Assembly: GCA_963813995.1 (NCBI GenBank)
Contig: CAWFAZ010000079.1
Span: forward strand, 23,236-87,235
From: an uncultured Verrucomicrobiae bacterium
Lineage (GTDB): Bacteria > Verrucomicrobiota > Verrucomicrobiia > Limisphaerales > Palsa-1400
Direction of reading: 5' to 3'
DNA length: 64,000 bases
Shown: positions 29,870 to 33,664 of the stretch, piece by piece
How positions within the stretch are numbered: the first letter of the stretch is position 1
How the letters are laid out: every line of letters begins with the position of its first letter
Translations under genes and position numbers: made by a program
Notes under the pieces: model-generated
Told to the model about the DNA's origin: nothing
The model's input: the letters and a program-made list of their open reading frames with translations, nothing else
The model's database searches: none

Positions 29870-29943
29870 GCGGCTGTGATTTAACAGCAGAATGCCTCCC
29901 TGCCAGGGAGGACGCCCGGGCGCAACCCCCGGCAGCCGCACCA
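29870..29943 (+). tRNA. tRNA-like unit 1, anticodon GCC (Gly), non-canonical T-loop CGCAACC
   Basis: Acceptor gcggctg/cagccgc; 3-bp D stem att/aat with loop taacagcag; anticodon arm cctcc-cuGCCag-ggagg (GCC at 29902-29904); T arm ccggg-cgcaacc-cccgg; A73; CCA encoded. Confidence 0.7.
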
Positions 29944-29952
29944 ATTCTTGAC

Positions 29953-30024
29953 AGGCTGCGCGTCAGCATGCGGCAGAGTTTCCAAAACTCAGCCCACTCC
30001 GGGTGGCACGGAGGCAGCCTGCCA
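29953..30024 (+). tRNA. tRNA-like unit 2, anticodon CCA (Trp), T-loop GGUGGCA
   Basis: Acceptor aggctgc/gcagcct (A1-U72) with G73, as in bacterial tRNA-Trp; anticodon loop ttCCAaa (29982-29984) on a 4-bp stem; T arm ctccg-ggtggca-cggag; CCA encoded. Confidence 0.6.
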
Positions 30025-30033
30025 ATTTTTTAC

Positions 30034-30108
30034 GGGGTCGTGGCAGACAAGCAATGCACTTGCCCTGCAAGCAAGCCGATGTGGGAGCGTTACCCACCGA
30101 CTCCACCA
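30034..30108 (+). tRNA. tRNA-like unit 3, anticodon UGC (Ala), T-loop AGCGUUA, C33
   Basis: Acceptor ggggtcg/cgactcc containing G3-U70 (30036/30102) plus A73, the Ala identity set; anticodon arm cttgc-ccUGCaa-gcaag (30066-30068); T arm gtggg-agcgtta-cccac; CCA encoded. Confidence 0.7.
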
Positions 30109-30114
30109 TTTCAC

Positions 30115-30187
30115 TGCGGGGAGAATGAGATTCAGGCGAGCCTCATAAGCTCAGCCTTCGTGGGTGCAACTCCCGCCCCCGCTACCA
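30115..30187 (+). tRNA. tRNA-like unit 4, anticodon CAU (Met/Ile2), weakest fold
   Basis: Anticodon loop ctCATaa (30144-30146); T arm gtggg-tgcaact-cccgc; acceptor tgcgggg/ccccgct with a U1-U72 mismatch; unusual D arm gaat-gag-attc; A73 and CCA. Confidence 0.4.
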
Positions 30188-30203
30188 ATTTAAGGTTCAA
30201 AAT

Positions 30204-30279
30204 GCTGCCGTGGCCGAACACATGAGGCATCCGTCTTCTAAACGGAACGATGCAGGTGGAATTCCTGCCGGCAGTGCCA
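30204..30279 (+). tRNA. tRNA-like unit 5, anticodon UCU (Arg), T-loop UGGAAUU
   Basis: Acceptor gctgccg/cggcagt; D stem gcc/ggc; anticodon arm tccgt-ctTCTaa-acgga (30237-30239); T arm gcagg-tggaatt-cctgc; G73; CCA. Confidence 0.7.
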
Positions 30280-30280
30280 T

Positions 30281-30354
30281 TGCCAGGTGGTGTCAAAGTA
30301 GCACGGCGGCCTGTTAAGCCGCTTGTCTTGGTGCGAGTCCAAGTCTGGCAGCCA
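30281..30354 (+). tRNA. tRNA-like unit 6, anticodon GUU (Asn), T-loop UGCGAGU
   Basis: Acceptor tgccagg/tctggca (U1-A72) with G73, as in E. coli tRNA-Asn; D stem gtg/cac; anticodon arm gcggc-ctGTTaa-gccgc (30313-30315); T arm cttgg-tgcgagt-ccaag; CCA. Confidence 0.7.
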
Positions 30355-30361
30355 ATTTCAC

Positions 30362-30452
30362 GGAAGGCAGGCAGATACAAGCTGGCTGCACCTGTCCCGA
30401 AAACAGGATCGGCTCAAACCCGAGGTCGGAGCGTTACCGACGCCTTCCGCCA
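30362..30452 (+). tRNA. tRNA-like unit 7, class II, anticodon CGA (Ser), T-loop AGCGUUA, C33
   Basis: Acceptor ggaaggc/gccttcc; 4-bp D stem gcag/ctgc; anticodon arm cctgt-ccCGAaa-acagg (30398-30400); long variable arm tcgg-ctcaaac-ccga (30409-30423); T arm gtcgg-agcgtta-ccgac; G73; CCA. Confidence 0.7.
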
Positions 30453-30481
30453 ATTCCAAACCCATAACGAAAGGAAACCCC

Positions 30482-30637
30482 ATGAAATCCATTGTTCGCC
30501 ATCAAAGCCAGTTGCTCTTTCGCAAGAGCTACAAACCAAAGCGTGCCATTCGAATCCGGCCGCTGCCGCGGCTGAATATTGTGTTCCGCCCCGTGAACCG
30601 GTTTGGCGTGAAGCCGCAATTGACAATCGTCTCGTAG
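30482..30637 (+). CDS. Possible small, very basic protein (51 aa) inside the tRNA-like array
   Basis: aaaggaaacccc ATG (Shine-Dalgarno-like). MKSIVRHQSQLLFRKSYKPKRAIRIRPLPRLNIVFRPVNRFGVKPQLTIVS. Its last three sense codons and stop (tag at 30635-30637) overlap the first 10 nt of unit 8 (30628-30637). No family recognised. Confidence 0.3.
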   Translation: MKSIVRHQSQLLFRKSYKPKRAIRIRPLPRLNIVFRPVNRFGVKPQLTIVS

Positions 30638-30698
30638 CTCAAGAGCAGAGCGCCCGGCTGATAACCGGAAGACCGCGGAGCGTTACCGCGCGGGACGA
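30628..30698 (+). tRNA. tRNA-like unit 8, anticodon GAU (Ile), canonical-looking D arm, T-loop AGCGUUA, no CCA
   Basis: Acceptor cgtctcg/cgggacg; ta-gctc-aagagca-gagc; anticodon loop ctGATaa (30660-30662); T arm cgcgg-agcgtta-ccgcg; A73 followed by tcc. Confidence 0.65.
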
Positions 30699-30739
30699 TC
30701 CGTCTTCGCTCTCCGAGCTTCGGCTCGGCGAGCCAAATT
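30699..30739 (+). repeat. Conserved ~40-nt motif, copy 1 (also at 32098-32138 and 33487-33527)
   Basis: tccgtcttcgctctccgagcttcggctcggcgagccaaatt. It can form gctc-t-ccgagc-ttcg-gctcgg-c-gagc. It follows directly after a tRNA-like 3' end. Confidence 0.7.
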
Positions 30740-30814
30740 CCCCGGGTAGCTGAGGCAGATTAGCGCCTCCCTGAAGAGGAGGAGACGTTGGCGCGATACC
30801 AACCCCGGGGGCCA
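30740..30814 (+). tRNA. tRNA-like unit 9, anticodon GAA (Phe), T-loop CGCGAUA
   Basis: Acceptor ccccggg/cccgggg; ta-gctg-aggcagat-tagc; anticodon arm cctcc-ctGAAga-ggagg (30773-30775); T arm gttgg-cgcgata-ccaac; G73; CCA. Confidence 0.7.
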
Positions 30815-30818
30815 TTTT

Positions 30819-31256
30819 AAATGCAGAGTTTGGAGTGGGGAGTGTAGAATGCTTAATCCGGCGGATTCCGACGGGCGGTGTTGATCGAAGAAACGGCGAT
30901 GGCGACCAACTCATTGGCCTCTCGCAGCAACGCTCCAGCCTGATGGAGCGTGGTTTTGTCGGAGTCAATCAACAATTCCATCCAAAAGGCGGACTCGTCG
31001 GCTTCTTCCAGAACCAAACCCATTTTGGCAATGAAGTCGGCTTTTGATCTTGCGCGGCAAACCGCCCGATAATTGGCGCCAACCGACGTGCCGGAACGCA
31101 ACAATTGCCGACCCAACGTTTTGCAAGTTTCCGTGGTCGGAAGGCATTCGACAAAGCGAATCACGTCCAGTGCGAATTGCCGTGTCCGATTCTGAAGGTC
31201 TTGGTGTTTCATAATAATTTCGGCATTCTGCACTTTGCACTTATAACTCTCAACTT
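30819..31256. repeat. Long imperfect inverted repeat (about 34-nt arms) enclosing the four-helix-bundle ORF: an IVS-like stem
   Basis: Left arm aaatgcagagtttggagtggggagtgtagaatgc (30819-30852) pairs with right arm gcattctgcactttgcacttataactctcaactt (31223-31256), about 27 of 34 positions including G-U pairs. Confidence 0.75.
30853..31212 (-). CDS. Four-helix-bundle protein (23S rRNA intervening-sequence protein family)
   Basis: MKHQDLQNRTRQFALDVIRFVECLP...GRQLLRSGTSVGANYRAVCRARSKADFIAKMGLVLEEADESAFWMELL is the hallmark of the family. The ORF could start at 31233. Confidence 0.85.
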   Translation of the reverse strand: MKHQDLQNRTRQFALDVIRFVECLPTTETCKTLGRQLLRSGTSVGANYRAVCRARSKADFIAKMGLVLEEADESAFWMELLIDSDKTTLHQAGALLREANELVAIAVSSINTARRNPPD

Positions 31257-31262
31257 CTTCCC

Positions 31263-31340
31263 GCTCTCAAAGTGTAATCAGATCTGCACGCCGCCCTGCG
31301 AAGGCGGAGGTTCGTGGTGCAAATCCACGTGAGAGCGCCA
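31263..31340 (+). tRNA. tRNA-like unit 10, anticodon GCG (Arg), T-loop UGCAAAU
   Basis: Acceptor gctctca/tgagagc; D stem gtg/cac; anticodon arm ccgcc-ctGCGaa-ggcgg (31298-31300); T arm cgtgg-tgcaaat-ccacg; G73; CCA. Confidence 0.7.
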
Positions 31341-31345
31341 CTTTT

Positions 31346-31442
31346 AAGTGCAGAGTGCTGAGTGCAAAATGCAGAGTGAAGAGTGGAAGGACGCGAACAT
31401 GCCGCTTTTCACTCTGCACTTTGAATTCACAACTTTGCACTT
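31346..31442. repeat. Empty copy of the purine/pyrimidine long hairpin (no ORF inside)
   Basis: aagtgcagagtgctgagtgcaaaatgcagagtgaagag ... cttttcactctgcactttgaattcacaactttgcactt. It uses the same sequence vocabulary as the arms around the four-helix ORF. Confidence 0.7.
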
Positions 31443-31449
31443 TTGCAAT

Positions 31450-31524
31450 GGTGATCATGATGTAACAGCAGCATCACGCCCCGTGACGGCGTTTGTGCCG
31501 GTGCAAATCCGGTTGGTCACCCCA
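31450..31524 (+). tRNA. tRNA-like unit 11, anticodon GUG (His) with G-1 and C73, T-loop UGCAAAU, C33
   Basis: g(-1) at 31450; acceptor gtgatca/tggtcac; D stem atg/cat with loop taacagcag; anticodon arm acgcc-ccGTGac-ggcgt (31483-31485); T arm gccgg-tgcaaat-ccggt; C73; CCA. Confidence 0.7.
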
Positions 31525-31536
31525 ATTCCTCATGGA

Positions 31537-31611
31537 ATCCCGTTGGCCGAGCAGCGCAGGCGGCGGTCTGCAGAACCGCAAAGGCTGGTGCAACTCCAGC
31601 ACGGGATTCCA
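31537..31611 (+). tRNA. tRNA-like unit 12, anticodon GCA (Cys) with U73, T-loop UGCAACU
   Basis: Acceptor atcccgt/acgggat; D stem gcc/ggc; anticodon arm gcggt-ctGCAga-accgc (31570-31572); T arm gctgg-tgcaact-ccagc; discriminator U (the Cys identity element); CCA. Confidence 0.7.
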
Positions 31612-31634
31612 ATTTCGCCGAACCAGCCGGAGGA

Positions 31635-32054
31635 TCACGAGTCGCCCATCACCGTGACCGCAATCGTGCGCCGGCGCGGTTTGATGTCGCACTCAAGATG
31701 AAAGATTTGCTGCCATGTGCCCAGCACGGGTTTGCGATCTTTGACTGGCACCGTGAGCGAAGGGCCCAGCATCGTCGCCTGCAAATGCGAATGGCCGTTG
31801 CCATCATGCCAGGCGTGTTCGTGGCCGTAGTCCCGACTGGGCGGAAACAGCTTGTCCAATATATTGGGCAGGTCTTCCTGAAGACCCGGCTCGAATTCAA
31901 TGGTGCCAATCGCGGCGGTGCTGCCGACGTTGAAAATATGCACAACGCCGGACCGCACGCCTGATGCGTTCACGATCCGGGCCACCTCGTCGGTGAGGTC
32001 GTGCATCTCTTTGTGTCCGGTGGTTTGAACCTGGATTTCTCGTTGATAGGTCAT
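31635..32054 (-). CDS. YjbQ-family (secondary thiamine-phosphate synthase-like) protein, antisense to the array
   Basis: ATG at 32054. MTYQREIQVQTTGHKEMHDLTDEVARIV...GVVHIFNVGSTAAIGTIEFEPGLQEDL...HEHAWHDGNGHSHLQATMLGPSLTVPV matches the YjbQ/UPF0047 pattern. Confidence 0.85.
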   Translation of the reverse strand: MTYQREIQVQTTGHKEMHDLTDEVARIVNASGVRSGVVHIFNVGSTAAIGTIEFEPGLQEDLPNILDKLFPPSRDYGHEHAWHDGNGHSHLQATMLGPSLTVPVKDRKPVLGTWQQIFHLECDIKPRRRTIAVTVMGDS

Positions 32055-32097
32055 GCCGTTGTTTATACCGAAGCTGCCGTCCAAGCGAGGTTTTCCC

Positions 32098-32138
32098 TCC
32101 AGCCTTCGCTCTGCGAGCTGCGGCTCGGCGAGCCATTT
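32098..32138 (+). repeat. Conserved ~40-nt motif, copy 2
   Basis: tccagccttcgctctgcgagctgcggctcggcgagccatttt. Confidence 0.7.
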
Positions 32139-32144
32139 TCCGCG

Positions 32145-32212
32145 ACGCGAATACCGGTGCCGGCCAGGGTTTCACAGACCTGGCTGCGGCGGTTCAACTC
32201 CGCCTTCGTGTC
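32145..32212 (+). tRNA. tRNA-like unit 13, anticodon CAC (Val). The only unit with a canonical T-loop (UUCAACU). No CCA.
   Basis: Acceptor acgcgaa/ttcgtgt, extendable to an 11-bp helix across 32141-32215; short D arm ccg-gtgc-cgg; anticodon loop ttCACag (32173-32175); T arm ggcgg-ttcaact-ccgcc. Confidence 0.5.
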
Positions 32213-32218
32213 GCGTCC

Positions 32219-32295
32219 GGGTTGCAAGCATTGCAGTGATGCAGCCCCGAACGCTTTCGGGGCAGAGCACGGTGCGAATCCGTGGCAACTCACCA
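32219..32295 (+). tRNA. tRNA-like unit 14, anticodon arm aberrant (6-bp stem with 8-nt loop AACGCUUU, or longer stem), T-loop UGCGAAU
   Basis: Acceptor gggttgc/gcaactc; D stem gca/tgc; T arm cacgg-tgcgaat-ccgtg; A73; CCA. The anticodon arm gccccg-aacgcttt-cggggc cannot form a 7-nt loop. Confidence 0.5.
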
Positions 32296-32300
32296 ATTTC

Positions 32301-32400
32301 AAGTGAAGAGTTGAGAGTGACGAATGCAGAATGGAGAGGATGAGAGGTTATCGCGTGCCAGCCGGTTTTTCATTCTGCATTCCGCACTCTGCACTTCTTC
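32301..32400. repeat. Empty copy of the long purine/pyrimidine hairpin
   Basis: aagtgaagagttgagagtgacgaatgcagaatgga ... ttcattctgcattccgcactctgcacttcttc. Confidence 0.7.
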
Positions 32401-32402
32401 CG

Positions 32403-32479
32403 GCTCCCGTAGCTCAAATTATCAGAGTGCGACGCTTCGAACGTCGCGGTTGCAGGTGAGAGTCCTGCCGGGAGTGCCA
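32403..32479 (+). tRNA. tRNA-like unit 15, anticodon UCG (Arg), T-loop UGAGAGU
   Basis: Acceptor gctcccg/cgggagt; ta-gctc-aaattatca-gagt; anticodon arm cgacg-ctTCGaa-cgtcg (32437-32439); T arm gcagg-tgagagt-cctgc; G73; CCA. Confidence 0.7.
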
Positions 32480-32485
32480 ATTCAG

Positions 32486-32562
32486 GCCGCGTTAGCCCAA
32501 CTACCAGAGGCGCTCCGCTCAGGACGGAGAGGTTGGGGGTGGAACTCCCTCACGCGGCACCA
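32486..32562 (+). tRNA. tRNA-like unit 16, anticodon CAG (Leu) but with a short (class I) variable region, T-loop UGGAACU
   Basis: Acceptor gccgcgt/acgcggc; D stem gcc/ggc; anticodon arm ctccg-ctCAGga-cggag (32520-32522); 5-nt variable region; T arm ggggg-tggaact-ccctc; A73; CCA. Confidence 0.65.
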
Positions 32563-32583
32563 TTTGGCGGCCCTGCGCCGGCA

Positions 32584-32655
32584 GCTCCCGTAGCCCAAGG
32601 CAGAGGCGACGGGCTTAAACCCCGTGCAGTGTCAGTGCAAATCTGACCGGGAGCA
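32584..32655 (+). tRNA. tRNA-like unit 17, anticodon UAA (Leu), class I-like, T-loop UGCAAAU, 3' CCG instead of CCA
   Basis: Acceptor gctcccg/cgggagc; ta-gcc-caaggcaga-ggc; anticodon arm acggg-ctTAAac-cccgt (32616-32618); T arm gtcag-tgcaaat-ctgac; A73 followed by ccg. Confidence 0.65.
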
Positions 32656-32663
32656 CCGCTTTC

Positions 32664-32738
32664 GCCCGTGTAGCCCAAGGCAGAGGCCCGAAGCTCAAAC
32701 CTTCGACAGTGCAGGCGCAAGTCCTGCCACGGGCACCA
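32664..32738 (+). tRNA. tRNA-like unit 18, anticodon CAA (Leu), class I-like, T-loop CGCAAGU
   Basis: Acceptor gcccgtg/cacgggc; D arm identical to unit 17; anticodon arm cgaag-ctCAAac-cttcg (32696-32698); T arm gcagg-cgcaagt-cctgc; A73; CCA. Confidence 0.65.
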
Positions 32739-32742
32739 TTTT

Positions 32743-32834
32743 GGAATGTCAACCGGACGAGCGAGCCGGGCCTGTTTGCTAAACAGCGCGCTCCTGGAAA
32801 CGGGAGTGTGGCGCAAGTCCACGGCATTCCGCCA
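32743..32834 (+). tRNA. tRNA-like unit 19, class II, anticodon GCU (Ser), T-loop CGCAAGU
   Basis: Acceptor ggaatgt/gcattcc; 4-bp D stem ccgg/ccgg; anticodon loop ttGCTaa (32778-32780); long variable arm ctcc-tggaaacg-ggag; T arm tgtgg-cgcaagt-ccacg; G73; CCA. Confidence 0.65.
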
Positions 32835-32839
32835 TTTTC

Positions 32840-32931
32840 GCGCGCGTAGCTCAAAGAGAGCCGGCGGCCTTATACCCCGCATCGCACTGGATCAGTGCCG
32901 GGTTCCGGAGCGTTACCGGACGCGCGCACCA
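32840..32931 (+). tRNA. tRNA-like unit 20, class II with 9-nt anticodon loop CCUUAUACC (identity unclear), T-loop AGCGUUA
   Basis: Acceptor gcgcgcg/cgcgcgc; ta-gctc-aaaga-gagc; anticodon stem gcgg/ccgc with loop 32868-32876; 6-bp variable arm gcactg-gat-cagtgc (32884-32898); T arm tccgg-agcgtta-ccgga; A73; CCA. Confidence 0.5.
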
Positions 32932-32936
32932 CTTCC

Positions 32937-33014
32937 GTCCCTGTGGTGTAGTCCAGCCAGCACGCCTGCCTCTCATGCAGGAGATCACCGGAGCAAAGCC
33001 GGTCAGGGACGCCA
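32937..33014 (+). tRNA. tRNA-like unit 21, anticodon CUC (Glu), T-loop AGCAAAG
   Basis: Acceptor gtccctg/cagggac; D stem gtg/cac with loop tagtccagccag; anticodon arm cctgc-ctCTCat-gcagg (32972-32974); T arm accgg-agcaaag-ccggt; G73; CCA. Confidence 0.7.
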
Positions 33015-33020
33015 CTTTTC

Positions 33021-33094
33021 GGCCTGCAAGCATTAAAGTGATGCAACGGTCTTTTAAGCCGTTGAACGGGGAGCGTTACCCCGGCGGGCCACCA
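33021..33094 (+). tRNA. tRNA-like unit 22, anticodon UUU (Lys), T-loop AGCGUUA
   Basis: Acceptor ggcctgc/gcgggcc; D stem gca/tgc; anticodon arm acggt-ctTTTaa-gccgt (33053-33055); T arm cgggg-agcgtta-ccccg; A73; CCA. Confidence 0.7.
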
Positions 33095-33097
33095 GTT

Positions 33098-33343
33098 TTA
33101 AGCAGAGTTTTCGCCAAGGCTCATTGCTGTATTCGACACGGGCATTTCGCCGTAATGGAATCCGGTTTCGTCTTCATAACCAATCGGCACGAGATGATTG
33201 ATGGCCGTGTGCCATATAACCGCGATGCGAGTCCAACTTCCCGGCCGCGCGGCTGGAACGATCAGACCGTCGCCGTTAGACGAGGACACCCATTCGGCTG
33301 GAACGCCTCCATCTGTATGACTGATAGTTGTCATGCTCCACAT
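33098..33343 (-). CDS. Hypothetical small protein antisense to the array
   Basis: 81-aa ORF (MWSMTTISHTDGGVPAEWVSSSNGDGLIVPAARPGSW...). No recognisable family and weak translation signals. Confidence 0.3.
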   Translation of the reverse strand: MWSMTTISHTDGGVPAEWVSSSNGDGLIVPAARPGSWTRIAVIWHTAINHLVPIGYEDETGFHYGEMPVSNTAMSLGENSA

Positions 33344-33414
33344 ATATCGGCTGAAACCAACGCGAGCTTACCATTTTTGTCAATTGATGAGCAATTTTTG
33401 ACCATCCTTTCGGG

Positions 33415-33489
33415 TGCCTCGTGGCATAATCAGGAGCGCGCCGGTCTCTGACACCGGAGAACCTGGAGCAAAACCAGGCGGGGCAGCCA
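33415..33489 (+). tRNA. tRNA-like unit 23, anticodon CUG (Gln) with U1-A72 and G73, T-loop AGCAAAA
   Basis: Acceptor tgcctcg/cggggca; anticodon arm ccggt-ctCTGac-accgg (33448-33450); T arm cctgg-agcaaaa-ccagg; G73; CCA. The D stem is poorly defined. Confidence 0.6.
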
Positions 33490-33527
33490 GCCTTCGCCTC
33501 GCGGCTGCGGCTCGGCAAGCCAATTTC
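33487..33527 (+). repeat. Conserved ~40-nt motif, copy 3
   Basis: ccagccttcgcctcgcggctgcggctcggcaagccaatttcc. It overlaps the CCA of unit 23. Confidence 0.7.
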
Positions 33528-33566
33528 CCATCGTGCGCAGACACCAACAAAGAACAAACACCGGAA

Positions 33567-33652
33567 GAAAGTGCGGAATGCAGAGTGCAGAGTGGAAAGT
33601 GCGTCATGGAACGCGGCGCTCGTCTTCATTCTGCACTCCGCATTCCAAACTC
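33567..33652. repeat. Empty copy of the long purine/pyrimidine hairpin, just upstream of the HNH gene
   Basis: gaaagtgcggaatgcagagtgcagagtggaaag ... cttcattctgcactccgcattccaaactc. Confidence 0.7.
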
Positions 33653-33664
33653 TTGACTGAATTT

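Follow-up and report, generated by a model that had tools for sequence, protein, structure and literature searches.

Tandem-heptamer hairpins, one of them enclosing a four-helix-bundle gene, in the spacers of a long tRNA array of an uncultured Verrucomicrobiae bacterium

The DNA analyzed here, a 64,000-nucleotide (nt) stretch of an uncultured Verrucomicrobiae bacterium (assembly GCA_963813995.1, contig CAWFAZ010000079.1, positions 23,236-87,235 of the forward strand) that we call the window, carries on its + strand at positions 29870-33490 an array of tRNA-like genes with encoded CCA ends, followed by an HNH gene. This is an accessory (spare) long tRNA array, i.e. a stable-RNA operon, and it is interrupted by four long hairpins, H1 to H4 (Table 1), the first of which encloses a small gene of the four-helix-bundle (4HB) family TIGR02436/PF05635. 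H1, H2 and H3 start 4-8 nt past the CCA tail of a tRNA-like unit and fill the whole spacers between units. H4 starts approximately 40 nt past a 40-nt motif, behind a leader, caacaaagaacaaacacc (33527-33566), that is kept ahead of the HNH gene in all relatives (orthologues L008-L018); where a variable hairpin is present at this site, it always lies between the leader and the HNH start codon. An earlier note on this DNA, made from the sequence alone, had each hairpin directly following a tRNA-like unit or the 40-nt motif, a description that is accurate for H1 to H3 and loose for H4.

The same note had placed four hairpins here with a common arm vocabulary, one around a complete 4HB gene on the opposite strand and three of the same stem type with only a short loop, and all of this is borne out. 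The H1 arms form about 28 pairs with a folding energy of -39.4 kcal/mol on the + strand and -26.4 kcal/mol on the - strand (shuffled arms, -17.3 ± 3.5), and H2, H3 and H4 each fold on the + strand into a single long hairpin (-51.9, -42.5 and -48.2 kcal/mol; against shuffles, the z-scores are -7.7, -3.1 and -5.9). The stems of the four hairpins comprise 28-37 pairs, and the loops of H2 to H4 are 15-37 nt long. Purine richness alone does not describe the arms, which consist of about five tandem heptamers (AGTGCAG, AATGCAG, AGTGAAG and GAATGCA type) in inverted arrays, with the complement in the opposite arm; period 7 is found in all arms of the four hairpins. RTGCAGARTG is matched ten times in the 64-kb window, each time within one of the four loci, on the + strand in left arms and on the - strand in right arms (chance expectation 0.55; maximum of three in 100 shuffles). 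No Rfam family matched the four hairpins.

Table 1. Positions of the hairpins, of the enclosed gene and of the cassettes with the second type of cargo (window positions unless a contig handle is given)
Feature	Position	Strand	Remarks
H1 left arm	30819..30856	+	about five heptamers, AATGCAG AGTTTGG AGTGGGG AGTGTAG AATGC; pairs with 31219-31256
4HB gene (TIGR02436/PF05635)	30853..31212	-	119 amino acids (aa); ATG at 31212; antisense to the tRNA array
H1 right arm	31219..31256	+	upstream of the open reading frame (ORF) when read on the minus strand
Promoter-like TTGAGA-17 nt-CAGAAT	31225..31253	-	lies in the ORF-proximal arm and ends 12 nt ahead of the ATG; matches the consensus at 9 of 12 positions, which by itself is not significant
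H2, gene-less	31346..31442	+	arms 31346-31386 and 31402-31442, loop about 15 nt
H3, gene-less	32301..32400	+	arms 32305-32338 and 32366-32399
H4, gene-less	33567..33654	+	arms 33567-33598 and 33623-33654; between the conserved leader and the HNH start codon (33665)
GxxExxY cassettes	C47:181288-181757, C42:186577-187152, C40:22018-22541, C31:18712-19135, C49:105291-105772		arm types CGCAAAGA, CGCAGAAA, CCACGGATTT

The ORF enclosed by H1 matches TIGR02436 (3e-22), PF05635 (1e-12) and PDB entry 2RLD (8e-19), and orthologues are found in locus L033 (82% aa identity) and in the related genomes G024 and G008 (71%). The ratio of nonsynonymous to synonymous substitution (dN/dS) against the orthologues is 0.07-0.09 with saturated dS, from which we conclude that the gene is functional and old at its array site; judged by its sequence, it is intact and under purifying selection. 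The promoter-like element in the ORF-proximal arm belongs to a TTGnnA-17-CAGAAT/CAGAGT pattern that is kept in four orthologous cassettes. If this promoter is real, the 4HB mRNA would start within the arm and could not form the stem, which would leave the array transcript and DNA as the only places for it.

Cassettes of the same design recur elsewhere in this genome, where the earlier note had suggested looking for both the arm sequence and the 4HB genes. All five TIGR02436 genes of the genome are flanked by period-7 inverted arms, each with its own vocabulary (AGTGCAG, GAATGCA, GAATTAA/GAAGTAA, AATGAC and ATTTCAA), and the H1-type vocabulary is found again at other places, including around a second 4HB gene (C65). 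The AATGAC sister family counts at least 29 copies without a gene, which occur in both orientations, and one copy around a 4HB gene; it is a palindrome of about 120 bp whose consensus is conserved including its mismatches (e.g. C79:407031-407154, C42:173450-173569 and C51:186374-186971). The five GxxExxY genes of the genome (TIGR04256, PD-(D/E)xK-like) are likewise all flanked by inverted tandem-repeat arms, here with a period of 8-9, and are a second cargo class of the same design. The same hairpin class is also dispersed through ordinary intergenic DNA. As to the rRNA operons, which the earlier note had also brought up, the sole 23S match of the genome (2874 nt against a 2925-position model) contains no intervening sequence (IVS). 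Two further repeat families were seen in passing. One is a MITE-like element (miniature inverted-repeat transposable element) of about 250 bp present in many copies, with terminal inverted repeats ggttcctcaacgttttcagtggaatag and a loop of 157-163 nt (e.g. C82:207954-208204, C47:187615-187865, C74:899-1386); the other is a hairpin family lacking tandem repeats (ggtggggcgagactccgtcgagcc...) found in the G018 array (L020 1830-1955) and beside a 4HB cassette at C79:90600-90690.

The synteny of the array extends to more than 20 related genomes, and BLAST matches between the arrays end exactly at the hairpins, which are the sole array parts that cannot be aligned between relatives. Tandem-repeat hairpins number 0-6 per related array and stand at differing spacers (designated positions A to D where they correspond to sites discussed here). 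In several genera, the filled and empty sites at positions C and D have exact borders. Related genomes have gained, lost or exchanged each hairpin as a whole. At position C, the site of H3, four arrays (G018:C2, G019, G005 and G024) have nothing but 3 nt (aac/aat) to separate the two corresponding units; the position is filled in G012 with a hairpin of the H3 vocabulary, in G008 with an AGTGAAT-built hairpin and in G002, of the same genus, with a GAATTAA-built hairpin that has an insertion sequence (IS) in its loop. G018:C8 and G004 have larger insertions at position C, which were considered as cassettes and rejected, as they contain ordinary genes and no heptamer arms. Position D, the site of H4, carries hairpins of the AGTGCAG, AGTGGCC or CGTGAAR type in the window genome, G012, G021, G018 and G028, and only 8-27 nt in G013, G008, G005, G023, G004 and G002. 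H2 has orthologous copies in G012 (92% identity) and G018 (82%). The 4HB cassette is present at position A in the window genome, L033 and G024, and in G008 the 71%-identical 4HB gene lies before the first array unit, so that one subfamily occupies two array sites, antisense to the array in all four cases. The arms of H4 are colinear with the arms of this gene-bearing G008 cassette (23/26 and 21/22), although it belongs to another genus and another array site, which ties empty and gene-bearing copies together. The IS in the position-C loop (L019, i.e. G002:C2, 3228-5294) encodes a 599-aa transposase and has terminal inverted repeats of its own.

The association of arms and gene was also examined across phyla, with an alignment of three paralogues as query (an alignment of all five was too diverse). 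Among 77 relatives of the window protein, a sample taken from the 80 loci closest to the query, for which reason the resulting 62% is not to be taken as a rate for the whole family, 48 loci have clear inverted arms, with period 7 in 47 of them; about ten phyla are covered, including Verrucomicrobiota, Acidobacteriota, Chloroflexota, Planctomycetota, Nitrospirota, Bacteroidota and Cyanobacteria. The median inverted-repeat score is 36 for cognate flanks and 17 for non-cognate flanks. Arm vocabulary tracks protein identity (Mantel r = 0.51, reached in 0 of 2000 permutations), the shared 6-mer fraction of the arms rising from 0.07 at 45-55% protein identity to 0.81 above 80%. Duplex folding of 280-nt flanks paired everything and was not informative. 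Hairpins were counted from an inverted-repeat scan, since the degeneracy of the heptamers lets most members escape a purine-run scan or a scan for strict period 7. At the genome level, 4HB genes occur in 35 of 41 relatives (0-14 per genome), and G007, G014 and G019 have neither 4HB nor GxxExxY genes. In 620 kb of G007 and G014 there are no tandem-repeat hairpins, against 14 in 1.2 Mb of G012, G008 and the window genome (7.2 expected in 620 kb, Poisson P of about 7e-4, in a small test on genomes that are related to one another), and the arrays of G014 and G019 likewise have none. The co-occurrence of arms with 4HB genes, on which the earlier note had made its case depend, therefore holds among the loci and genomes sampled. 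A general association of 4HB cassettes with tRNA genes was considered and rejected: one of 60 4HB loci lies in a tRNA array (L033, the orthologous array), and the cassette is thus not tRNA-specific. Two Acidobacteriota loci have a tRNA-SeC gene whose end lies 55-120 nt ahead of the 4HB gene, on its upstream side (L058 1348-1446, L066 1283-1381). Our literature search found no account of heptamer arms around PF05635 genes outside rRNA, and as far as searched the class has not been named in print.

We propose that the four loci are probably palindromic tandem-heptamer cassettes of the IVS type, one gene-bearing and three empty, that have settled in the spacers of a tRNA array, with a tie to the small 4HB protein and cutting by RNase III as proposed parts of the picture. 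H1, with its TIGR02436 gene between period-7 arrays, and H4, which shares its arms with a gene-bearing copy, both fall into the class of heptamer-armed 4HB cassettes; the recurrence in the genome, the 48 armed loci among 77 relatives, the filled and empty sites and the H4-G008 arms support the idea, already put forward in the earlier note, of a stem-loop cassette that can carry the ORF. The cassettes would be elements at the DNA level whose spread or maintenance may be tied to the 4HB protein, as repetitive extragenic palindromic (REP) repeats are tied to the REP-associated tyrosine transposase (RAYT). In a transcribed array each of them would form an RNA duplex of 28-37 bp to be cut by the host RNase III, and such cutting may render an insertion into a stable-RNA operon harmless, as for the 23S rRNA IVS. 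Stems of 28-37 bp are ordinary substrates of RNase III, and given this stem length and the rnc gene present in the genome, processing of the stems is plausible.

Several observations weigh against this proposal. The AGTGCAG family has only about seven copies in the genome, no target-site duplication was seen at the filled/empty junctions of position C, no movement was observed between near-identical strains, and the H1 cassette encodes neither a transposase nor a nuclease. The saturated dS between same-site orthologues makes H1 behave as a resident gene and not as a recent invader, and the genome-level co-occurrence was drawn from five related genomes, contig starts only. At the RNA level, the array strand is favored in 11 and the opposite strand in nine of 22 array hairpins, and wobble (G.U) pairs in the 48 4HB loci favor neither the ORF strand nor its opposite (45 vs 47); nothing therefore shows selection for an RNA stem. 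In each of the four window hairpins the array strand does fold more stably, by 4-13 kcal/mol, which we had considered as evidence for a function in RNA and dropped in view of these counts, of the predominance of transversions among the arm mismatches of the 48 loci and of the orthologous 4HB cassettes, which have no consistent strand preference.

In a more specific form of the partnership, each subunit of a pentameric 4HB protein would recognize one heptamer of an array of about five, either in DNA or in RNA, and the gene-less hairpins would be the dispersed targets of the protein; this would be a REP/RAYT-like partnership around a protein with no known enzymatic activity, tolerated in stable-RNA operons by way of RNase III. 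We regard this form as doubtful; if true, it would account for the origin of rRNA IVSs and also for the tandem heptamers that many bacterial genomes carry and that have so far lacked an explanation. A different explanation sees in the hairpins components of the tRNA operon kept by host selection, namely stems at which RNase III or another processing activity segments the precursor, with the 4HB gene as a passenger. The filling of entire spacers by H1 to H3 right behind the CCA tails, the occupation of positions B and D in several genera and the better folding of the window hairpins on the array strand would fit such a role, but related arrays work with anything from no hairpin (several of them) to six, the H3 site is a bare spacer in four arrays, hairpins are the one array component that does not align between relatives, the strand preference dissolves over the 22 array hairpins, and the same hairpin class occurs in ordinary intergenic DNA. 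A host-selected processing role is unlikely because occupancy varies so much among relatives.

That the hairpins are by-products of replication slippage or template switching at AT-rich spacers, arising de novo at each site with no identity as elements and no link to the 4HB gene, would account for the differing vocabularies at one site, the absent target duplications and the arm mismatches of the 48 4HB loci, which are mostly transversions and register shifts (172 vs 92 transitions). We consider it very unlikely, as it leaves unexplained the colinearity of the H4 arms with a cassette of another genus at another site, the AATGAC family with its conserved 120-bp consensus, mismatches included, in at least 29 copies, the pairing of period 7 with 4HB and period 8-9 with GxxExxY genes, the covariation of arms with protein, and the lack of these hairpins in sampled genomes without the genes. 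Equally improbable are local regulators, i.e. terminators or attenuators in the array and, for H4, translational or stability control in the HNH 5' leader, since for all that a hairpin lies at exactly the H4 site between caacaaagaacaaacacc and the HNH ATG in at least five arrays of four genera, a terminator scan called none of the four hairpins and no U-tract follows any stem, at least five related arrays keep the same HNH gene with 8-27 nt and no hairpin at the site, and the enclosed 4HB gene and the genome-wide family would be left unexplained.

Two other differences between the window array and its relatives were noted. After the Phe-like unit, relatives have an extra tRNA-like unit (gtccgtgaatgcaaagcag...ccacggatgcca) that the window genome does not have (window 30815-31262 vs L019 2405-2504, L020 2018-2120 and L033). 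Within the array, at 31635-32084, a YjbQ/UPF0047 gene is encoded on the opposite strand. Its matches in relatives (G002, G008 and G018 among them) fall on another contig or at another place; the array has therefore been rearranged.

The cassettes can be compared with several known systems. They differ from MITEs in that no target duplication is found at the position C junctions and no transposase is associated with them. The Ssn/NTS system, in which small GIY-YIG ssDNA nucleases are framed by the repeats they cut (PMC11893778), also joins a small gene to a dispersed cognate repeat, but its protein has another fold, and the 4HB protein has no nuclease motif and no known activity. Tandem heptanucleotide repeats, such as the short tandemly repeated repetitive (STRR) sequences of cyanobacteria and the four- and five-heptamer elements of Geobacter metallireducens (PMC2700814), resemble the arms in their four to five intergenic tandem heptamers, some of them drawn as hairpins, although those reports name no associated gene family. 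REP/REPIN repeats, which together with RAYT genes make up REPtrons, share with the cassettes a small gene between inverted repeat copies, the dispersal of the same repeat as gene-less palindromes, an own repeat family for each paralogue and the co-occurrence of gene and repeat at the genome level. They differ in the protein, which here is a four-helix bundle and not a Y1 (HUH) transposase (the ORF matches PF05635/TIGR02436 only), in having a fixed REP motif instead of tandem-heptamer arms, and in copy number, which is low for the AGTGCAG family. The host locus itself is the same as the published long tRNA arrays (L-arrays), with co-oriented CCA-encoding tRNA genes beside an HNH gene; hairpins, inverted repeats and RNase III are not mentioned in the text of the L-array paper, and our literature search found no account of hairpins in L-arrays. 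Hairpins between the genes of a long tRNA array need not belong to the operon's own design.

The closest likeness is to the ORF-bearing IVS of 23S rRNA, the origin and function of which have, to our knowledge, been lacking for more than 30 years; nor do we know of a role for PF05635 proteins, which include the protein Avd of diversity-generating retroelements (DGRs), outside DGRs. In Coxiella the 23S IVS has a 28-bp terminal stem with tandem GACAGAT heptamers and a PF05635 ORF and is excised by RNase III (PMC4990558). The ORF-bearing IVSs of Coxiella burnetii (helix 45) and Leptospira share with the hairpins in the window a stem of about 28 bp made of long terminal inverted repeats, tandem purine-rich heptamers, a loop with a PF05635 4HB ORF, the existence of gene-less versions and a stable-RNA operon as host (PMC4990558). 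The stems here, of 28-37 pairs, are above the minimum of 20 bp for an IVS stem, and the PF05635 ORF in the loop together with heptamers in the stem is the Coxiella arrangement. The host is a tRNA array and not helix 25 or 45 of 23S rRNA, the ORF is antisense to the host transcript, seemingly with its own promoter in the arm, and RNase III excision belongs to the published IVSs and would be carried over to the present hairpins by analogy. Of the earlier note's comparison of H1 with an rRNA IVS, the architecture of stem, heptamers and ORF thus stands, and the link to rRNA is one of analogy only. What the locus offers is a second type of stable-RNA operon as host of the stem-plus-ORF module, with gene-bearing and empty copies side by side, and the filled and empty sites in several related genera make an insertable cassette, its removal by RNase III and a partnership of protein and arms open to experiment.

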